In this document: positions 9,132 to 38,370 of the stretch, one piece after another
Position numbering within the stretch: position 1 is the first letter of the stretch
Layout: every line of letters begins with the position of its first letter
Source of the DNA: a virus
Lineage: Duplodnaviria; Caudoviricetes
DNA length: 64,000 nucleotides
Virus record (IMG/VR): IMGVR_UViG_3300024331_000152
Location: 32,001-96,000 of that record
Direction: 5' to 3' (one strand)
The notes under the pieces: model-generated
Databases searched by the model: none
What the model saw: the letters and a program-made list of their open reading frames with translations, nothing else
What the model was told of the DNA's origin: nothing
Program-made: the position numbers and the translations under genes

Positions 9132-9207
9132 GTACCGGAAGGTAAAGGCTGGAACCAGCGGTCCGCAAAACCGCTTTTAGCGAGTTGAACTCTCGCCCGG
9201 TACTCCA
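9132..9207 (+). tRNA. tRNA-Cys(GCA)
   Basis: GCGGT-CCGCAAA-ACCGC, U73, CCA. Confidence 0.85.
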
Positions 9208-9217
9208 ATTTTGAAGT

Positions 9218-10954: not shown

Positions 10955-12310
10955 TTAGAACCCGCGCACTTGTGATGCAGGAGCAGCAATATCTCGCGCT
11001 GGCATTTGAGGCGGCAAAGGCGGGGCATTTGCGGCTTTGCGATGAACTCTATCGCTGGGCTGCTGACCGTCATCAGAATCTACAACTTTATCTCGGATTG
11101 GTTCCCGACCAAACAGAAGCGCCTGCGCATCGGCAATAGTCGCCTTTTCGGGAAGCTGGCTGCGAAAATCGTCGTAATTCGAAATAGAGAAAACTTCTTT
11201 TGCTCGCTGGTGAAACCGGCGCAACTCTTCCTCGCGCGCCCAAGTAATATGAAACTCGCGGTCGATTCTTCCCTTGCGCACAAGAGCTGAATCGAGTCTC
11301 TCGCGATGATTCGTAGTGATAATCAGCAATCGTCCCTCGGTTGCAACTACGCCGTCGATCACATTCAGCAGATCCGAAGCGACGATTCCTTTGGTTACCT
11401 CGTCGCCGTCTTTGTCGAATTTGCGCTCCCGGGCGGCAGGCACGCAGTCCACATCCTCGATGAGCAGGATCGACCGATTACAAACGGTATTGATGAGCCT
11501 CTGTAGATCTTCAGAACGTTCAACGCCAGCGACGTTGAGGTAATAAAGTGGAAGCTCTAAATGCGTGGCAAGCGCTTGCACTAAGGATGATTTTCCTGTT
11601 CCCGGAGGACCATAGAAGCAGAAGCCGCGCCGCCATGGGATACCGAGCATTCGGTACTTGTCTTTGATCGACAAAAATTGCTCAATGTCGGTGACAATGG
11701 ATTCTATTTCACCGGCAGGCAGATAGATCGTATCGAGAGAGCGCGGCGACAACTCGCGGCTATCCCACCAGCTCCCTTCGTTGCGGTAGATGAAGAGTTT
11801 CTTTTCGAGTTGGGCATAGAACTCGGCCCGGGCCTCGTCAAGTAAATCAGTGATGATTTGGCGATCCAGCGTTCCCCAGATCGACACTTGGATCGTGCGG
11901 CGCGGACGGAATAGAGACGTCGCACCTTCAGCTATCGCCCCCGGCGTTCCCGGGGCAGAGGCTTCCTTATCGGATGTAAAAATTAGGAGATACCGCTGCT
12001 TGAAGCGCAGATAATAGGTTCCGTAGCGCGGGATCGTTTGATAGTCCATGCCGTCGATGGTGCGCTTGCGCCGGAGCATGAGATCTGTGATGCGCTTCTC
12101 GCGAATACGCTTTTCGGCCCATAGAGCAATCCACATGTAGGCTTCTTCGGTCTCATGCTCTTCGACCGCAACGGCGACATGCAGCTTTCGGAGGAAGTAG
12201 CCAATCGAATAGTTGTAGACGAGAGACCAGAAGTTTCGGAGCCAGCCCAGAGCTACTCCGCCCACCACGAGCAGCCATGGCGAGTCTTTCATCAGTTTTT
12301 GCCAATCCAT
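10955..12310 (-). CDS. BCS1-like membrane-anchored AAA+ ATPase
   Basis: N-terminal TM, GIPWRRGFCFYGPPGTGKSS Walker A, ILLIEDVD Walker B, TTNHRERLDSALVRKGRID. Confidence 0.9.
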   Translation of the reverse strand: MDWQKLMKDSPWLLVVGGVALGWLRNFWSLVYNYSIGYFLRKLHVAVAVEEHETEEAYMWIALWAEKRIREKRITDLMLRRKRTIDGMDYQTIPRYGTYYLRFKQRYLLIFTSDKEASAPGTPGAIAEGATSLFRPRRTIQVSIWGTLDRQIITDLLDEARAEFYAQLEKKLFIYRNEGSWWDSRELSPRSLDTIYLPAGEIESIVTDIEQFLSIKDKYRMLGIPWRRGFCFYGPPGTGKSSLVQALATHLELPLYYLNVAGVERSEDLQRLINTVCNRSILLIEDVDCVPAARERKFDKDGDEVTKGIVASDLLNVIDGVVATEGRLLIITTNHRERLDSALVRKGRIDREFHITWAREEELRRFHQRAKEVFSISNYDDFRSQLPEKATIADAQALLFGREPIRDKVVDSDDGQQPSDRVHRKAANAPPLPPQMPARDIAAPASQVRGF

Positions 12311-13216: not shown

Positions 13217-13291
13217 GGCTGTGTAGCTCAACCAGAGCACCCGTCTTCAAAACGGTAGGTTGCAGGTATACAACCCCTGTCACAGCCACCA
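13217..13291 (+). tRNA. tRNA with UCA anticodon (UGA-reading; atypical T-loop)
   Basis: CCGT-CTTCAAA-ACGG, acceptor GGCTGTG/CACAGCC, ACCA. Confidence 0.65.
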
Positions 13292-15743: not shown

Positions 15744-15819
15744 GCGCTCGTGGCTCAGCGGCAGAGCGCCGGTCTTCAAAACCGGGTCAGCGTGGGTTCG
15801 AACCTCACCGAGCGCTCCA
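15744..15819 (+). tRNA. tRNA with UCA anticodon (UGA-reading), Gly-like acceptor
   Basis: CCGGT-CTTCAAA-ACCGG; G1-C72, C2-G71, G3-C70, U73; short variable loop. Confidence 0.8.
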
Positions 15820-18274: not shown

Positions 18275-18467
18275 TTGCAATTTGCGCGCATCATAGGTTA
18301 AGGTAGGAAGCGTTATGAAACTCAACCGAGCCAATTCGAACCATTCGTTTAATCCAGCGGCACAACCGCAGGGTACAACGCGTGTGCGTGGCTCGGCCTG
18401 AACAGCATCCTTTAGCAATGCGATGCAGTACAGACCCCCGAGCCTAGATAATAGACTCGGGGGTTTT
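18275..18467 (+). promoter_or_regulatory. Promoter, leader peptide and attenuator of tRNA operon 2
   Basis: TTGCAA-18-TAAGGT; uORF 18315-18401 MKLNRANSNHSFNPAAQPQGTTRVRGSA; terminator ACCCCCGAG/CTCGGGGGT-TTT; GGCTCGG(18390) pairs CCGAGCC at 18326 or 18438. Confidence 0.8.
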
Positions 18468-18474
18468 GATTGGC

Positions 18475-18999
18475 ATGGGAAAGTGGCTGCATCGTGTTTC
18501 GAATATCGATTTTGATTCTCTCACTGGTGATTGCTCTACTTGTGGGCGCGTGAGATTGAAAGTAAAGAAAGGCGGCAGGAGATTTGCATGCGCTGTATCT
18601 GAGCAACGCTGGTGCGATGGACAAAGCGTATCAAAGAGAAGGGCTGCTCGCCGTAGACAAACTAGAAAGTTGCTCGCAAAGCTTCTATCTAGTGGATGTC
18701 GGATATGTCGAGTAGCCAAGAAAGGAATTCATTGTCATCATCTCGATAGTTCCACAAAGAGTTTCAATATTTCGCAAGGGTATACAGACTGTTCCAGAGA
18801 GCTGTTAATTGCCGAGCTGAAAAAATGTATTGCCGTGTGTCAGCAATGCCATACAAAGATTCACTTCAGGCAGTTTGTAGTATCTGAGGATTTGATTTCT
18901 GAGTGGAATAGAGATGTAGATGTTTTATTCACGCGTAGCTCAATGGTAGAGCCCTGCACTGTTAATGCAGTCATTGGGGGTTCGATTCCCTCCGCGTGA
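18475..18999 (+). CDS. HNH endonuclease
   Basis: GCRIC..IHCHHLD..K.FNISQ..AELKKCIAVCQQCH; 3' end runs into tRNA-Asn. Confidence 0.75.
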   Translation: MGKWLHRVSNIDFDSLTGDCSTCGRVRLKVKKGGRRFACAVSEQRWCDGQSVSKRRAARRRQTRKLLAKLLSSGCRICRVAKKGIHCHHLDSSTKSFNISQGYTDCSRELLIAELKKCIAVCQQCHTKIHFRQFVVSEDLISEWNRDVDVLFTRSSMVEPCTVNAVIGGSIPSA

Positions 19000-19378: not shown

Positions 19379-19915
19379 ATGATCCGTAGAACAGTTTTGA
19401 TGCTGAACGCGAGCTACGAACCGCTGCGGATCATCAGCGCAAAGAAGTCCCTGACACTCTTAACCAAGGGTGTTGCCGTGGTGGAGGTACCAACCAAGAT
19501 CCAAGTCCACGCGGGGATCTACTTGCCGAGTGTTATTCGGTTGCGTCATTTCCGCAACGTGCCGCACAAGAGGCCAGTGCCGTCGAGAAAGAACATCTTC
19601 ACCAGAGACGGTTTTCGCTGCTTGTATTGCGGTGCCAAGGCTCCGAAAGTAGTGCTCGAACTTGAGCACATCGTTCCGAGATCGAGAGGCGGAGCAAACG
19701 CTTGGGACAACCTTTGTGCATCTTGTCACGATTGCAACCAGAAGAAGCGTGACAGGACTCCGGAGGAAGCAGGCATGAAGTTGATTCACAGACCTCTGCC
19801 CGCGACCGTACACACCGGCAGGTTCGTCTTGAAGACGATGGGTAACGAAATTGCAGAGTGGGGTCCGTTTCTATGGAAGGACTCTAAGGGCGAACAGAAG
19901 TTGCAGTTCGCATAA
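19379..19915 (+). CDS. HNH endonuclease
   Basis: [56 protein letters not shown]. Confidence 0.9.
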
Positions 19916-21831: not shown

Positions 21832-21900
21832 TACATGGTAGCTCATTTGGTAGAGCATTCGCCTCTTAAGCGAAGGGTAGTCGGTTCAATTCCGAGTCGC
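21832..21900 (+). pseudogene. tRNA-Lys(CTT) pseudogene
   Basis: D, anticodon (TTCGC-CTCTTAA-GCGAA) and T arms present; acceptor stem and CCA missing. Confidence 0.6.
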
Positions 21901-22468: not shown

Positions 22469-22628
22469 TTGCAATTTGCGCGCATCCTGAGTTAAGCTCT
22501 ATTTCGTTATGCAGAGAACTATAGCCATGTCGATCACCAAAGGGACCAAGAGGGTCATTTGGGGAGGCGTGTCTTAGGGGTCTGCACGAGTAGGTTTCAT
22601 CAGACCCCGACTCAGGTCGGGGTTTTTT
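22469..22628 (+). promoter_or_regulatory. Promoter, leader peptide and attenuator of tRNA operon 3
   Basis: TTGCAA-18-TAAGCT; uORF 22509-22577 MQRTIAMSITKGTKRVIWGGVS; terminator ACCCCGAC-TCAG-GTCGGGGT-T5; antiterminator GGGGTCTG(22577)/CAGACCCC(22601). Confidence 0.8.
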
Positions 22629-22646
22629 GTTGTTTGACAAGTTTAT

Positions 22647-22716
22647 AGGGGATGATCTGGGATCGACGAGGTCTCCAAAACCTCACAGCGGAGTTCAATT
22701 CTCCGATCCCCTGCCA
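22647..22716 (+). tRNA. tRNA-Trp(CCA)
   Basis: GAGGT-CTCCAAA-ACCTC, G73 CCA. Confidence 0.85.
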
Positions 22717-22719
22717 TTT

Positions 22720-22796
22720 GCCAGCGAAGCAGAAGTGGATATTGCGCGCGTCTCATAAGCGCGTTGTAGTGGGTTCGAGTCCCACCGTTGGCACCA
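22720..22796 (+). tRNA. tRNA-Met/Ile2(CAT)
   Basis: CGCGT-CTCATAA-GCGCG, CCA. Confidence 0.8.
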
Positions 22797-22864
22797 AGTT
22801 CACAGCGGTGTTCGCCTTACTCTGACGGCGCAATACCGTCCCGCTGTGAATCCAGTTTCTGGAC

Positions 22865-22944
22865 GCACGTGTAGCTGCTAGTCGGTATGTAGCAGTCCCC
22901 TTATAAGGGACCGGTTGTGGGTTCGACACCCGCCACGTGCACCA
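22865..22944 (+). tRNA. tRNA-Ile(TAT)
   Basis: GTCCC-CTTATAA-GGGAC, CCA. Confidence 0.8.
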
Positions 22945-22995
22945 AAATTAGCATCAAACCTGTTACGTCACCGGGAGACTGACAGGAGGAGAGCT

Positions 22996-23202
22996 ATGCT
23001 CATTACCCTGTTTTGGATCATTGCAGTTCTCGTTGTGGCTGGTCTTCTGTTGTACCTGATCAACACGATCCCGGGAATCGATCCAACGATCCACGCACTG
23101 ATCAGGGCTGTTGTGATCATCGTCTGCGTGGTCTTTGTGCTGTACTTTGTGTTCTCGTTGTTTAGCGGAGTGGCAATTCCAAGTCCGCACTTTACGAGGT
23201 AG
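22996..23202 (+). CDS. Small two-TM membrane protein
   Basis: AGGAGGAG RBS; two hydrophobic helices around NTIPGIDP. Confidence 0.65.
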   Translation: MLITLFWIIAVLVVAGLLLYLINTIPGIDPTIHALIRAVVIIVCVVFVLYFVFSLFSGVAIPSPHFTR

Positions 23203-23207
23203 TTTTT

Positions 23208-23282
23208 GGGCTGTAAGCTTTGTCGGCGAAGCAATCGACTCTTAATCGATAGAGCAGGGTTCGATTCCCTGACGGCCCACCA
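23208..23282 (+). tRNA. tRNA-Lys(CTT)
   Basis: ATCGA-CTCTTAA-TCGAT, CCA. Confidence 0.85.
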
Positions 23283-23340
23283 AATTTTGCGAAGGAGAAG
23301 TGAGATGCGAAAACAGAAAGATGACCCAGATAAACGAATT

Positions 23341-23416
23341 GGGGTCGTCGCATAGAGGCAACTGCAACGGACTTTTAATCCGAATGACGTGAGTTCGAAT
23401 CTCACCGGCCCCACCA
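23341..23416 (+). tRNA. tRNA-Lys(TTT)
   Basis: CGGA-CTTTTAA-TCCG, CCA. Confidence 0.85.
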
Positions 23417-23425
23417 TAGTTTTTT

Positions 23426-23502
23426 GCTGGCGTAACTCAGACGGACAGAGTGCCTGTCTTCTAAACAGGAAGCCGCTGGTTCGACTCCAGCCGTCAGCAC
23501 CA
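23426..23502 (+). tRNA. tRNA-Arg(TCT)
   Basis: CCTGT-CTTCTAA-ACAGG, CCA. Confidence 0.85.
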
Positions 23503-23503
23503 T

Positions 23504-23579
23504 GGCCCCTTAGCTCAGTCGGAAGAGCGGATCGGTCCTAACGATAAGGTCGGGAGTTCGAATCTCTCAGGGGTCACCA
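23504..23579 (+). tRNA. tRNA-Arg(CCT)
   Basis: ATCG-GTCCTAA-CGAT, CCA. Confidence 0.8.
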
Positions 23580-23585
23580 AGTTTT

Positions 23586-23662
23586 GCTGCCGTATCGGCC
23601 TCGCCTCCGAAGCGAGATCCCGTAGGTGGATAAGGCTGGTTCGAATCCAGTCGGCAGCTCCA
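23586..23662 (+). tRNA. D-armless tRNA-Arg(CCG)-like RNA
   Basis: Acceptor, CTCGC-CTCCGAA-GCGAG, long variable region, T-arm, CCA; D-arm replaced by 7 nt. Confidence 0.6.
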
Positions 23663-23667
23663 GTTTT

Positions 23668-23742
23668 GCGGATGTAGATCAACGGTAGATCGGGTGTCTT
23701 ACAAGCACTTCGTCGTGGGTTCAACTCCTACCATCCGCACCA
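23668..23742 (+). tRNA. tRNA-Val(TAC)
   Basis: GGTGT-CTTACAA-GCACT, CCA. Confidence 0.85.
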
Positions 23743-24220
23743 ACTTGTCGTGATCGAGTTCCCAATGGTGATTACGGCACAAGCCGACAAGATTATTAGG
23801 GCGATTAACGATTCCTAATGTCGTAGATTCGGCGAACTCACAAACGGGAGTGAGATGACAACAATCAACGTAGAGGTTGTAGCCGCAGATGGCGCATTTC
23901 TTCAAGAGTCCCGCTCTTAAAGCAACGCTCCTTGCATGAGATCGCACTACAGTATCGTAGGCGTTTCGAGATCCGGACTTTTTAAGATCTGCTAGGGTGA
24001 CAGATTCAAAATCTCGGCGACGGCAATCGCGACAACTTTTAACCCGATAGCGGTCTAGTATTTTGCCGCATTTTGGGCATGAATATATCTTTCGCGCATA
24101 CCCTTTCCAAGGGGTTCTAATTCTTTCTTTATTGTTGTAGATGGCCGCACATGACGAATTACAAAAACGTGGATTATTTGTTGGAACGTCGCAGTTGGCG
24201 CAGGTACGACGAAAGTTCAT
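23699..24220 (-). CDS. HNH endonuclease inserted antisense in the tRNA operon
   Basis: FCNSSCAA, CAICGY..VDCCHL...NNLVGLCRNHHWELD. Confidence 0.85.
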   Translation of the reverse strand: MNFRRTCANCDVPTNNPRFCNSSCAAIYNNKERIRTPWKGYARKIYSCPKCGKILDRYRVKSCRDCRRRDFESVTLADLKKSGSRNAYDTVVRSHARSVALRAGLLKKCAICGYNLYVDCCHLTPVCEFAESTTLGIVNRPNNLVGLCRNHHWELDHDKLVRMVGVEPTTKCL

Positions 24221-24347
24221 AGAAAGATGGTACCGGAGCTGTAGACAACGGCACCACCTTTTTAAAGAAGTAGCACAGGTTATCGTGCGAAAGAGTCATT
24301 CCTTATTCTGGACAAGACAAGGACTGGCTGTATGTTCAAAATTGAAC

Positions 24348-24424
24348 GCTGCCGTAGCTCAGTTGGCCAGAGCACACCCTTGGTAAGGGTGAGGTCGTCA
24401 GTTCGAAACTGACCGGTAGCTCCA
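24348..24424 (+). tRNA. tRNA-Thr(GGT)
   Basis: CACCC-TTGGTAA-GGGTG, CCA. Confidence 0.9.
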
Positions 24425-24430
24425 TATTGT

Positions 24431-24506
24431 TGGCGGATAGCTCAGGTGGTCAGAGCACGCGACCGATAATCGCGAGGCCGGAGTTCAACTCTCCGTCCGC
24501 CAACCA
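24431..24506 (+). tRNA. tRNA-Ile(GAT)
   Basis: CGCGA-CCGATAA-TCGCG, CCA. Confidence 0.85.
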
Positions 24507-24512
24507 AAGTTA

Positions 24513-24596
24513 GCGGGGGTCGCTCAGTGGTAGAGCCGCTGCCTTCCAAGCAGCCGACCTTGTGTCATGCGGGTTCGAATCCCGTCCCCCGCTCCA
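24513..24596 (+). tRNA. tRNA-Gly(TCC) with extended variable region
   Basis: GCTGC-CTTCCAA-GCAGC, U73 CCA. Confidence 0.8.
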
Positions 24597-31417: not shown

Positions 31418-32559
31418 TGTCGGCTGGCTCATCTGCAATGCAGGTAAGCCGTGAGTGGGAAAACCAAAAAGAGCTGATTATGCGGACGGTCGCCATAGGA
31501 CTCGACGAGGATCAGTTCCGCCTCTTCCTGTACGTTGCCCATGTACGTGGTCTCGATCCGCTCCAACGTCAGATCCACGCTGTCGTACGTAATACAAAGG
31601 AAGGCGACAAGTGGGTTCCAAAGATGACGATCCAGACCGGCATCGATGGCTATCGCGCCATCGCGAACCGGACCGGAACGTACATGCCGTCCGACAAGGA
31701 GCCGCGCGTCGAAGGTGCTGGAGGGGCAGACCTTCGTATCACGGTCTATGTGAAGAAGTTTCACGAAAAGTCTGGACAGTGGATGGAGTTCAACGCGACC
31801 GCTTACTACCGCGAGTACGTGCAGACCTATAAAGATCAGAGCGGCAAACAGGTACCCAACTCGATGTGGGCCAAAATGCCCATAAACCAACTCACGAAAT
31901 GCGCCGAGGCTCTAGCGCTCCGCAAGGGCTGGCCTGAAGAGCTTGGTCAGATCTACACCGACGAGGAAATGGGACAGGCAGACAGCTTTGCGCCGCCAGC
32001 GGACACGCGCCCCTCACAGCAAAACAAGACACAGCGAGAGGTTGGTACGCTCAAGCAGTCGAAAGAGCAGAATCGTGGACACGGCAACGAGGGCACCGAG
32101 AGACAAGCTCAACCAGACAAGACGATGTGTGCAGAGTGCCGACAGGTCGATGGGCACACTGCCGACTGCCCGCAGGGAAAGAAGGCCGCAGCCGCTAAGA
32201 AACCATCGTCCCGCGAGCGCTGGGAAAAGTCTGAAGGGCACGATCCGAAGATCCATATCAGCTTCGACGATGGCCTGCAACTCTTCGGCGTACAGAAGGA
32301 CTTGAAGATCTCGGATGAGGATATCAAGGCATTCCTCGACCGCGAGTTTAAGGTCCAGCACCGCTACCTCATCCGGCAGGATCAGTTCCAGAACGTCCTC
32401 AGTAAGCTGGCGGAAGTGTACGGCGAGAATCTTGATGCGGAACTAGAGGAAGAGCCCGAATCCGCCGAGGACGCGCCGCGCAATACCACAGCAGATGGCC
32501 TGTTTGATGAACCATCTGGCAACAAGCTGTCAGGAAAGCGGCACAAAGACCCGGCGTAG
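31393..32559 (+). CDS. bet: Single-strand annealing recombinase, Bet/RecT family
   Basis: FLYVAHVRGLDPLQRQIHAV, TIQTGIDGYRAIANRTG, WAKMPINQLTKCAEALALRKGWP. Confidence 0.85.
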   Translation: MPESNLAVMSAGSSAMQVSREWENQKELIMRTVAIGLDEDQFRLFLYVAHVRGLDPLQRQIHAVVRNTKEGDKWVPKMTIQTGIDGYRAIANRTGTYMPSDKEPRVEGAGGADLRITVYVKKFHEKSGQWMEFNATAYYREYVQTYKDQSGKQVPNSMWAKMPINQLTKCAEALALRKGWPEELGQIYTDEEMGQADSFAPPADTRPSQQNKTQREVGTLKQSKEQNRGHGNEGTERQAQPDKTMCAECRQVDGHTADCPQGKKAAAAKKPSSRERWEKSEGHDPKIHISFDDGLQLFGVQKDLKISDEDIKAFLDREFKVQHRYLIRQDQFQNVLSKLAEVYGENLDAELEEEPESAEDAPRNTTADGLFDEPSGNKLSGKRHKDPA

Positions 32560-35682: not shown

Positions 35683-38370
35683 ATGAGTAGGGACGACTAC
35701 GCCGTTCCAGATAAAGCGCCAGAGAAGCCGCCATCGCGGCGCAAGCGGCCTGCGCTGACAGATGGTGATGTATTGCACAACATCACGCTTCCGGCCAACA
35801 TCGATGCCGAGAAAACGATTCTTGGCGCGGTCTTCATGGACGAGGATTACATCTTCGAAGCCATCGAGAGGCTTCAACCTGAAGACTTTTCTCTTGACTC
35901 ACATAAGCGGATTTTTGCCTGCATGCTTAGCTTGTCGCGTGAGCGCGAGGCAATCGACATCGTCACAGTAAGTAACGATCTCTCAAAGAAAAAAGAGATC
36001 GAGTACATCGGCGGTGTGGCGTATCTTGCGTCTCTGTCGGAAGGTCTGCCAATGAGGCCACAGATCGACGACTATATCCGGATTGTGAAAGACAAGGCAA
36101 TGGCGCGCCGGTTGATTCACGTGTGTTCTAAAACAATCACGCAAGCCTCAGATCAATCAGAGCCATCATTGATCACAGCAAGCGCCCTAAGCGCTGGCCT
36201 TGAGGAAGTGATTTCAGGCAGCGTTCATCGCCGTCTCGTTCCTGTCGATGAAGCGACTATCGAAGTTCTCAACGACTTTGAGAAGCAAGCTCAGCTTACA
36301 GAGACTCCGGGGTTTAGTTGGGGCGTTGAGGGCCTTGACGAGGCGACAGGGGGCATCCAGCCCGGAGAACAAGCCGTTGTCGGCTGCTACTCTGGAGTCG
36401 GTAAGACGACGCTCCTCGCGCAGATCGTGGCCGCAAATTGTCTCAAGGGCCGCAAGATCGCGCTGTTTTTGATCGAGCCAACCAAGAAGACATTTCTTCG
36501 TCAGCTCTACGCTGTGCTTCATGGCATCCGCTACACGGCGTGTACGAAGCCATGGCTCGCTACATCACACGAGAAACAGCAGTTCCGCGACGCCGCGCGC
36601 TTCGTGGCGAATGAGTGGGCTAAGAGCCTATTCCTATTCGACGAACGCAACCTGACGCTTGACGAGGAGATTGCGCACGGTCGTCTGGCAATGCATCGCC
36701 ATGGCGTGGAGTTGATCGGGATCGACTACATCCAACGCATGCAGGTTCCCGCGACCGACAAGAATGAAGACATGCGGCTCCGAATGGGGCGCGCCAGTAT
36801 CGCGAATGCGGAACTAGTGAAGGATACTGGAGCCCGAACATTAGTCTTGTCGCAGTTGAATCGCGGGGGTAATCTTGAATCCGTTCCAACCATGAACATG
36901 CTGCGCGAGTGCGTACATGGCGATACGCGCGTAATTGACGCGGTGAGCGGCAGGCTATGGAAAGTGGCTGATCTTGAGGCTGGCGCGATGATTATGGCAG
37001 TAGATGATTGCCAACACGTTCGGCCTGCCAAAGTGAGTAAAGTGTGGAGTACCGGCGTAAAGCCAGTTTGGAAAGTTAAAACATCGACCGGAAAAACAAT
37101 CACATGCACAGCAAATCATCCACTTCGTTCAGCTACGGGGTGGAAAACTGTAAAAGAACTGCAAACAGGAGACTGCATTGCTTCTGCGATGTATATACCA
37201 GAGGCAAAGGAACCAGAAGATAATCACTATGACCTATGCAGGCTTCTCGGATATTTGACAGGAGATGGGAGCTACCTGCGCAGCAGATCAGTATCATTTA
37301 TTTCCAATGACACAGAGACGTTCGATGATGTGGAAGAAATTATGCTGAATTACTGGCCAAGCATTTCAGTGCATCGCAAAAAAAGTTCCCGATACCACGA
37401 GGCCAGCTTCACAATGGCGGGGAATGTGTCGAAAAATAACGGCAATCCTGTGCGAGTATTTCTTCAGGAAATTGGCGTATATGGGCAGCGTGACAGTGAA
37501 AAACATATTCCGGAGTACGTCTGGGCTCGCGGTAGAGAAGGTGCGCGGCAATTTTTAGCCGGTTATCTCGCCACGGACGGGTGCGTTAAAAAAGAAAAAT
37601 ACAACTCCGGGCTGACAGGATGGCGAGTTCACTTCGATAGCACCAGCTATCGGCTAGCGAGAGATATACAAACGCTCCTCCAAAGACTTGGAATAGTGTC
37701 TTCAATTTCAAACGGATACACTTCCAAGAAAGCAACAAAGCCACTCTATCGTGTGTACCTCAGTTCCTATAAACCAAATCTTTTATGGTTTGCCTCAACG
37801 ATTCCAGTGAGAGGTCGCAAAGCGGAGTTGTTGGCGTCAGCAGCGGCGTGGTGCGACAACACGAAGACAATAACCAATTCAGGCCCGTTCGGTCTTCCTC
37901 GTGAGATTAGCCGCTACGCGTCTATTCGTTACGCTGGCCTGTGGAAAGATCAAGGGAAAATGATGGACAGGGAAAGGGCCGCTGCGCTGGCATGTAAATT
38001 TTCAGATCAATGGCTATTGTCTTACGCCAAGAGCGATTTGTTATGGGAAAAAGTTGTTGCTATTGAACCGGCTGGAGAGGCTGAGGTGTACGATCTTACA
38101 GTGCCAGAAACGGGAGCGTTTTTAGCAGACGGTCTAGTTGCGCATAATAGTGGTCAGCTTGAGAATGACGCTACAACGATCTGCCTATTGCACCTCAAGT
38201 GGGATTCTGATCTCGGCCACTTCACAGATGAGGGAGCTGGGATCATCTGCAAGCAGCGCTTCGGGGTTCCGTGTAACGTGAAACTTTTCAAGGATTCAAA
38301 GACTGCAAAGTGGTGTTCCGGCGACAGGCCGGAAGGTGAAGTGGCGTACGAGCAGCCAAAGCTTTACTAG
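35683..38370 (+). CDS. dnaB: Replicative DnaB-like helicase with intein
   Basis: PANIDAEKTILGA N-domain, GCYSGVGKT Walker A, IDYIQ, LSQLNR, LRE|..|SGQLENDA. Confidence 0.92.
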   Translation: MSRDDYAVPDKAPEKPPSRRKRPALTDGDVLHNITLPANIDAEKTILGAVFMDEDYIFEAIERLQPEDFSLDSHKRIFACMLSLSREREAIDIVTVSNDLSKKKEIEYIGGVAYLASLSEGLPMRPQIDDYIRIVKDKAMARRLIHVCSKTITQASDQSEPSLITASALSAGLEEVISGSVHRRLVPVDEATIEVLNDFEKQAQLTETPGFSWGVEGLDEATGGIQPGEQAVVGCYSGVGKTTLLAQIVAANCLKGRKIALFLIEPTKKTFLRQLYAVLHGIRYTACTKPWLATSHEKQQFRDAARFVANEWAKSLFLFDERNLTLDEEIAHGRLAMHRHGVELIGIDYIQRMQVPATDKNEDMRLRMGRASIANAELVKDTGARTLVLSQLNRGGNLESVPTMNMLRECVHGDTRVIDAVSGRLWKVADLEAGAMIMAVDDCQHVRPAKVSKVWSTGVKPVWKVKTSTGKTITCTANHPLRSATGWKTVKELQTGDCIASAMYIPEAKEPEDNHYDLCRLLGYLTGDGSYLRSRSVSFISNDTETFDDVEEIMLNYWPSISVHRKKSSRYHEASFTMAGNVSKNNGNPVRVFLQEIGVYGQRDSEKHIPEYVWARGREGARQFLAGYLATDGCVKKEKYNSGLTGWRVHFDSTSYRLARDIQTLLQRLGIVSSISNGYTSKKATKPLYRVYLSSYKPNLLWFASTIPVRGRKAELLASAAAWCDNTKTITNSGPFGLPREISRYASIRYAGLWKDQGKMMDRERAAALACKFSDQWLLSYAKSDLLWEKVVAIEPAGEAEVYDLTVPETGAFLADGLVAHNSGQLENDATTICLLHLKWDSDLGHFTDEGAGIICKQRFGVPCNVKLFKDSKTAKWCSGDRPEGEVAYEQPKLY
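36910..38148 (+). mobile_element. Intein with LAGLIDADG endonuclease (413 aa)
   Basis: Starts CVHGDT after LRE, TANHPL block B, LLGYLTGDG and FLAGYLATDG, ends GLVAHN|S. Confidence 0.92.

Follow-up and report, generated by a model that had tools for sequence, protein, structure and literature searches.

A probable leader-peptide attenuator ahead of a phage tRNA operon, with leader codons matched to the downstream tRNAs

The locus and its leader

The subject of this analysis is a short leader that precedes an array of twelve transfer RNA (tRNA) genes in the genome of a soil phage, IMG/VR record IMGVR_UViG_3300024331_000152. The window, meaning the whole stretch of DNA analysed, comprises 64,000 nucleotides (nt) of that record (its positions 32,001 to 96,000). 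Leader and array occupy positions 22469-24596 of the window and are called operon 3; two further tRNA operons with leaders of their own, 1 and 2, lie before it. Between a promoter-like region and the first tRNA gene stand a 22-codon upstream open reading frame (uORF), an intrinsic terminator and an alternative, antiterminator helix (Table 1). In our reading the element is probably a ribosome-mediated leader-peptide transcription attenuator that would give feedback control of the phage's tRNA supply. The locus and its relatives present a set of elements, a codon match between leader and operon, two mutually exclusive helices, and the conservation and co-variation of these.

The record is a single contig of 142,794 base pairs (bp) with 52.9% G+C. 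ARAGORN finds 36 genes for tRNAs and transfer-messenger RNA (tmRNA), to which several non-canonical ones are added; a permuted tmRNA, HNH endonucleases and an intein-bearing DnaB are also encoded. The closest isolate at the DNA level is Tunturiibacter phage Tunturi_5, a 308.7-kb phage of a tundra-soil acidobacterium that is in culture together with its host (PMC11924767).

The promoter-like region begins with an 18-mer, TTGCAATTTGCGCGCATC, that has exactly two occurrences: at 18275, before the leader of operon 2, and at 22469, where it forms the first 18 nt of the region. The initial annotation had noted a promoter sequence common to the two operons, and the identity is exact. In shuffled sequence, three or more matches with up to three mismatches were found in 0/100 cases; a search of IMG/VR with the exact 18-mer gave no match. 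The geometry is similar at operon 2 (-10 box TAAGGT) and at operon 1 (TTGACA, 17 nt, AATGAT), and at all three leaders the -10 box stands 10 nt before the ATG; the 5' untranslated region would thus be very short or absent, and the RNAs nearly leaderless. On these sequence grounds the box at 22469-22498 is a candidate promoter.

The uORF lies where the initial annotation placed it and has the codons listed there. It would encode MQRTIAMSITKGTKRVIWGGVS, and its codons include AGA, AGG, ATA, ATC, ATT, ATG, AAA, AAG, ACT, ACC (twice), GGA, GGG, GTG and TGG. A hairpin can form within its 3' half and is kept in relatives, with free energies (dG) of -15 to -21 kcal/mol in most, its 3' strand being fixed by the pattern with which the relatives were sought. 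This may be an RNA polymerase pause hairpin that couples ribosome and polymerase.

The terminator is recovered by a terminator scan as well. The antiterminator abuts the stop codon and has a complementary partner, as initially described: GGGGTCTG shares the G of TAG, and its partner CAGACCCC overlaps the terminator 5' arm. The antiterminator helix (dG -15.8) ties up 6 of the 9 nt of that arm, and through the 6 nt that they share the two helices are mutually exclusive. Among Rfam families for leaders and riboswitches (Thr, His, Leu and Trp leaders, T-box) none is found at its gathering score; only tRNA and tmRNA families pass, and the top leader-type match at the locus is rnk_pseudo, which reaches 23.5 bits where 55 is the gathering score (E = 3.1). 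Between terminator and tRNA-Trp there is a conserved box: all relatives, Tunturi_5 among them, have CTTTGACAA or CTTTGAAAA at a distance of 5-22 nt ahead of tRNA-Trp (e.g. at about 11044-11052 in locus L001). This TTGACA box was considered as a second promoter for the tRNAs and rejected, the spacing to tRNA-Trp being too short for a -35 box.

Table 1. Leader elements, tRNA genes and other features of operon 3 (window positions)
Feature	Position	Strand	Remarks
Promoter-like region	22469..22498	+	-35-like TTGCAA 22469-22474, 18-nt spacer, -10-like TAAGCT 22493-22498
Leader uORF (putative sensor)	22509..22577	+	22 codons and TAG; ATG at 22509, TAG 22575-22577
Hairpin within uORF 3' half	22526..22573	+	dG about -15.7 kcal/mol; in relatives GAAUGACC...GGUCAUUU
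Antiterminator 5' arm	22577..22584	+	GGGGTCTG; first base is the G of TAG; within the footprint of a terminating ribosome
Antiterminator 3' arm	22601..22608	+	CAGACCCC; 6 nt common to terminator 5' arm
Intrinsic terminator	22603..22629	+	9-bp stem, TCAG loop, T-run; dG -16.2 kcal/mol; 5' arm GACCCCGAC 22603-22611, 3' arm GTCGGGGTT 22616-22624, T-run 22623-22628
Conserved box	22633..22640	+	TTTGACAA; between terminator and tRNA-Trp
tRNA-Trp(CCA)	22647..22716	+	very short D-arm; found by ARAGORN only with lowered threshold, missed at default
tRNA(CAT)	22720-22796	+	ARAGORN
Structured spacer	within 22720..22944	+	between tRNA(CAT) and tRNA-Ile(TAT)
tRNA-Ile(TAT)	22865-22944	+	ARAGORN
tRNA-Lys(CTT), tRNA-Lys(TTT), tRNA-Arg(TCT), tRNA-Arg(CCT)	23208..23579	+	ARAGORN
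tRNA-Arg(CCG)-like gene	23586..23662 (about)	+	non-canonical, D-armless, long variable region
tRNA-Val(TAC)	23668..23742	+	ARAGORN
HNH endonuclease gene	23699..24220	-	antisense within the array; missing here in compact relatives
Promoter-like site	24309-24336		ahead of tRNA-Thr
tRNA-Thr(GGT), tRNA-Ile(GAT), tRNA-Gly(TCC)	24348..24596	+	ARAGORN; array end

The codon match between leader and operon

The tRNAs named in the initial annotation are present downstream, ten of them called by ARAGORN and Trp(CCA) at the lowered threshold. When codons and anticodons are matched under strict wobble rules, 15 of the 21 post-start codons of the uORF are read by tRNAs of its own operon, as against 2 and 2 by those of the other two operons. 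The leaders of operons 1 and 2 likewise match their own operon at 13/22 and 18/27 codons, and other operons at 2-4. The permutation test of leader against operon that had been proposed with the initial annotation goes the same way: the correct assignment gives 46 matches and the five others at most 24, and random redistribution of the 70 codons over the leaders reaches 46 in 0/200,000 trials (P < 5e-6).

The match also stands out against the genome as a whole. In a blind ranking of the 582 ATG-initiated open reading frames (ORFs) of 18-35 codons, taken from both strands of the whole genome, the uORF comes first by matching fraction and by tRNA coverage, and leader 2 comes first for its own tRNA set. 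With coding windows as the null, the matching fraction has P = 6e-5, and 0/200,000 windows reach fraction and coverage together.

A different kind of evidence is the choice among synonymous codons. Operons 2 and 3 divide the Arg, Thr and Gly isoacceptors between them, a partition that the initial annotation held the leaders to follow. They do so at 14/15 of the leader codons concerned, where synonymous usage leads one to expect 7.5/15 (P = 3e-4); this argues for sensing by tRNA species, not by amino acid. There are exceptions to the match in other leaders: leader 2 has one TTT, yet no tRNA for Phe was found, and leader C of Tunturi_5 has ACC, yet its Thr(GGT) belongs to operon B.

A tRNA-Cys(GCA) at 9132-9208, between Leu(TAA) and Leu(CAG), is missed by ARAGORN and by Rfam. 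The TGC codon in leader 1 matches it, and relatives have a canonical Cys tRNA at this place.

Conservation among relatives

Relatives were collected with DNA patterns for two of the leaders. The pattern for leader 1 (type A) hits three IMG/VR phages next to tRNAs (G001, G002 and G003), and in each the match stands directly before a Leu/Cys/Ser/Tyr array; 20/23 matches of this pattern have no tRNAs nearby and are mostly chance. A 15-nt pattern for leader 3 (type C), run over IMG/VR and metagenomes, gives at least 19 loci, 17 of them distinct, each with a uORF ending in ...KRVIWGVVS, hairpins, and then the same tRNA series starting with Trp. About 100 of the 142 leader-C matches listed (23 in IMG/VR, 119 in metagenomes) lie away from tRNAs, and for this pattern too most matches are chance. 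Altogether, Tunturi_5, three IMG/VR phages and about 17 metagenome contigs bear the module. Tunturi_5 has all three modules, with largely different leader peptides, and in 4/4 genomes with three leaders (Tunturi_5 and two IMG/VR phages among them) the correct assignment of leaders to operons is the best of six. No relatives were found by way of two flanking proteins, an R2K ATP-grasp protein and a zinc-ribbon protein, and blastn of the operon against INPHARED phages gave tRNA-sized matches only, except for Tunturi_5.

In compact relatives the three arrays adjoin. One contig of 3.65 kb carries 27 tRNAs and has four spacers of more than 100 nt. Leaders B and C make up exactly two of these (230 and 192 nt); a third is an HNH gene, and the fourth is a gap of 115 nt without such an ORF.

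The codons of the leader are conserved in a selective way. Outside the 15-nt search pattern, cognate columns are kept (AAA 17/19, ATA 16/19, AGA 16/19, ATG 17/19, AAG 19/19, GTG 19/19), and those that change usually stay cognate (95-100% in most columns). Most non-cognate columns vary across amino acids: CTT is found in 8/19, CGC in 8/19 and GTC in 7/19, for example. Leader content tracks the tRNA content of the operon across phages. Operon C of Tunturi_5 additionally holds Asp, two Glu, Val(GAC), Arg(ACG) and Arg(CCG) tRNAs; its leader C, annotated as gp308 (49 codons), has six GAY, two GAR, four GTY, six CGC and one CGG, and Asp, Glu, GTY, CGC and CGG codons are nearly absent from the other versions of leader C.

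The two helices recur as well. When the homologues are folded separately, 18/19 have an antiterminator that begins at a distance of 0-3 nt from the stop codon's first base; in the exception, L080, the ORF is longer and the equivalent arm lies inside its last codons. Free energies are -14 to -20 kcal/mol for the antiterminator and -14 to -17 for most terminators, and in most homologues the antiterminator sequesters 4-7 nt of the terminator 5' arm. In covariance-model alignments of 19-21 homologues, 94.2% of antiterminator cells are paired across 19 distinct homologues and 4 pairs are changed on both sides; shuffled alignments score as high in 0/500 cases for the covariation score and for double changes, and in 1/500 for the percentage paired. 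For the terminator, 91.3% of cells are paired and 12 show changes on both sides; shuffles are as high in 0/500, except for pairs with double changes (50/500). Pairing drops to 31-70% in controls with a slid partner. These covariation figures are support, not proof. Across leaders of types A, B and C from five genomes, a partner for the terminator arm is found between -24 and +12 of the stop in 11/13.

The unsampled tRNA

The initial annotation singled out a D-armless Arg(CCG), which it called aberrant, as the one tRNA of the operon that the leader does not sample. It is indeed the only one, CGG being the only cognate codon family that is not in the leader, and it does lack a D-arm; it is not a decayed gene, however, because the odd layout is kept in a relative. 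In this layout GTATCGG stands after the acceptor stem, in place of the D-arm; the anticodon arm and the T-arm are normal, and the variable stretch between them is long (..CCGTAG.TGGAT..). Arg(CCG) alone is of this form in the window, whereas in G001 Arg(TCT), Arg(CCT) and Arg(CCG) all are; at L056 (reverse strand) the form belongs to three tRNA-like genes between Lys(TTT) and Val(TAC). At the column where this leader has AGG, 18/19 relatives carry CGG. The idea that the sensor codon CGG was lost along with a decayed tRNA was dropped: G001 has the same D-armless shape, yet its leader keeps CGG.

A proposed mechanism and what weighs against it

From this arrangement we infer that the promoter is used, that the uORF is translated, and how the switch runs in direction and kinetics, as follows. 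Transcription would begin at the promoter-like box, and translation of the uORF would start close to the 5' end of the transcript. If decoding is quick, the ribosome that reaches TAG would cover GGGGTCTG and leave CAGACCCC free; the terminator hairpin could then form, and RNA polymerase would halt before tRNA-Trp. If the ribosome lags at any cognate codon (AGA, AGG, ATA, AAA, AAG, TGG, GGA and others), GGGGTCTG would pair with CAGACCCC; this pairing, forming first, would remove 6 of the 9 nt of the terminator 5' arm and allow readthrough into the twelve tRNA genes. The outcome would be negative feedback on the total decoding capacity, host plus phage, for the codons of the block: its tRNAs would be switched on during slow decoding of those codons and off once supply suffices. 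Every prediction of the attenuator reading that could be tested computationally came out in its favour.

Several points weigh against this reading. The -10 box, TAAGCT, is weak, and no Shine-Dalgarno sequence was found before the uORF, so translation would need to be leaderless or nearly so. Six of the 21 uORF codons are non-cognate under strict wobble, and once 15 cognate codons are given, a coverage of 11 of the 12 tRNAs is not unusual (P = 0.10); the main codon signal is enrichment and partition, not evenness of sampling. No convincing anti-antiterminator, in which region 1 pairs with region 2, was found in the window (-10.9 versus -16.5 kcal/mol), and without it an untranslated leader would probably read through; some relatives have a good complement to the antiterminator arm, and that of L124 is a perfect 9-mer. 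A ribosome stalled at one of the two or three final codons (e.g. GTG) would still mask the antiterminator arm. The homologues are related, so that shuffle statistics overstate their independence, and covariance-model alignments are biased towards the modelled structure. Finally, the array of this phage contains an antisense HNH gene and, ahead of tRNA-Thr, a promoter-like site, which may uncouple its last three tRNAs (Thr, Ile and Gly); that site might serve their separate expression.

A wider view takes the three attenuators together, as surveillance of tRNA supply isoacceptor by isoacceptor. Nearly the whole repertoire would then be divided into feedback modules. Slow decoding of any of its codons would turn a module on, for instance where the host lacks the tRNAs or where host anticodon nucleases or other tRNA-depleting defences have cleaved them; and the arrangement would be conserved in a widespread lineage of soil phages, probably infecting Acidobacteriota. 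This extension is tentative, and we would sooner doubt it than rely on it.

Alternative explanations

The most durable alternative keeps the RNA switch and changes the signal: the leader would respond to the general speed of translation or to aminoacylation, as in amino-acid starvation or host shut-off, or would time the passage from early to late expression, and would not be a sensor of tRNA supply. To a stalled ribosome, an absent tRNA and an uncharged one are alike; codons for at least eight amino acids are in the leader, so any broad slowdown would open the switch; and the evenness of tRNA sampling is only modest. Amino acids or global speed alone, however, do not lead one to expect synonymous codons to be partitioned by isoacceptor at 14 of 15 places, nor leader content that follows the downstream tRNAs from phage to phage. 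We regard this alternative as unlikely, though it is the one to be taken most seriously.

Much less probable is that the uORF encodes a micropeptide with a function, served by a promoter and a terminator of its own, and that transcription of the tRNAs is independent. The C-terminal KRVIWGVVS is kept in many relatives, but its conservation is imposed by the 15-nt search pattern; the peptide of leader C in Tunturi_5 is unrelated although the codon logic is the same, and amino acids at non-cognate positions change freely. A TTGACA-like box does follow the terminator, which would fit separate transcription of the tRNAs, but at 7-22 nt from tRNA-Trp it is too near to be its -35.

Just as improbable is the idea that the hairpins are constitutive terminators, or elements of RNA processing or stability between transcription units, with an incidental uORF. 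Intrinsic terminators are common between phage genes, and terminator-like sites in this region are not above the shuffled expectation. Such an account leaves aside a codon match that ranks first genome-wide, and a conserved alternative helix, overlapping the terminator and in 18/19 homologues tied to the stop codon; moreover, a constant terminator directly between promoter and tRNA array would silence the array. Chance likeness of a short ORF to a tRNA set might be suspected of a uORF picked after inspection, but it is effectively refuted by the genome-wide ranking and by the permutation, codon-column and partition statistics, and the pattern comes three times in the genome and again at more than 20 related loci.

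Relation to known systems

If the leader is an attenuator, it belongs with thrL (Thr, Ile), ilvL of ilvGMEDA (Ile, Leu, Val) and the trpL/hisL/leuL/pheL class. Common to all are a short translated leader with regulatory codons, an intrinsic terminator, and an exclusive antiterminator whose 5' arm is masked by the ribosome at the stop, so that slow decoding brings readthrough. The differences are several. The targets here are tRNA genes, not biosynthetic enzymes; about 11 isoacceptors of eight amino acids are sampled, mostly once or twice each, whereas the classical leaders have runs for one to three amino acids; the choice among synonymous codons follows the isoacceptor; the window has no clear 1:2 anti-antiterminator; and the element is phage-encoded, probably on a near-leaderless transcript.

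Leader-peptide attenuation of a component of the translation apparatus is known from the pheM leader of pheST (phenylalanyl-tRNA synthetase) in E. coli. It too is feedback on decoding capacity, but through one amino acid, by a run of Phe codons, over a protein gene, and in a cell. T-box riboswitches likewise couple the status of a specific tRNA to the choice between terminator and antiterminator before translation-related genes; they differ in binding the uncharged tRNA directly, via a specifier codon and without a ribosome, and the leader has no T-box match. In mycobacteria, leaderless polycysteine uORFs are codon-specific short-ORF sensors over a downstream operon (bioRxiv 10.1101/834739); as far as that account goes, they sense Cys only, govern biosynthetic genes and do not rely on a terminator/antiterminator pair.

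A search of the open-access full-text literature found no description of leader-peptide control of tRNA genes, and the paper on the Tunturi phages does not mention such control (PMC11924767). The class of attenuation would be a known one; what differs is that the target is tRNA genes, that sampling is isoacceptor-specific and extends over many codons, and that the element is viral.

Why phages carry tRNA genes is a long-standing question. Compensation for codon usage, shut-off of host tRNAs and evasion of anticodon nucleases have been proposed, and to our knowledge the regulation of these genes has hardly been considered so far. If the attenuator reading is true, the phage gauges decoding capacity and makes tRNAs as they are needed; classical attenuation extends from amino-acid biosynthesis to tRNA genes; and the leader is a compact natural sensor of isoacceptor-specific decoding speed, usable as a reporter. 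The question is testable because Tunturi_5, a relative with the same modules, is cultured with its host (PMC11924767).

Other features of the arrays and the window

The tRNA-Trp(CCA) with its short D-arm occupies the position of a canonical tRNA-Trp in relatives, and its region gives a weak tRNA-like match in an Rfam-type scan as well.

Small ORFs occur inside operon 3. One, at 22997-23203 between Ile(TAT) and Lys(CTT), is hydrophobic (about 68 amino acids) and has GGAGGAG ahead of its ATG. Another, at 23306-23356, has 16 codons (MRKQKDDPDKRIGVVA), a strong Shine-Dalgarno sequence (GAAGGAG) and three AAA codons, and extends into the 5' end of tRNA-Lys(TTT); chance may account for it, or it may act as another, local sensor. 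A small ORF between operons 2 and 3 contains, at 21838-21898, a possible remnant of a tRNA: a partial tRNA-like stretch that covers positions 7-64 of the Rfam model and has CTT in its anticodon loop.

Two tRNA genes, at 13217-13291 and 15744-15819, have the anticodon TCA, which reads TGA, and may be opal suppressors; TGA terminates 34 of 118 long ORFs. It is also the stop of this genome's leader 2 and of most leader-C homologues, so that suppression could alter attenuation late in infection.

HNH-type endonuclease genes lie in or beside the tRNA arrays at 18466-18999, 19379-19915 and 23699-24220, and most of these insertions are missing from compact relatives. The first is without a Pfam match and is read as HNH-like from its Cys and His motifs. 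Farther along the window, at 35683-38370, a DnaB-like helicase is split by an intein with a LAGLIDADG domain.

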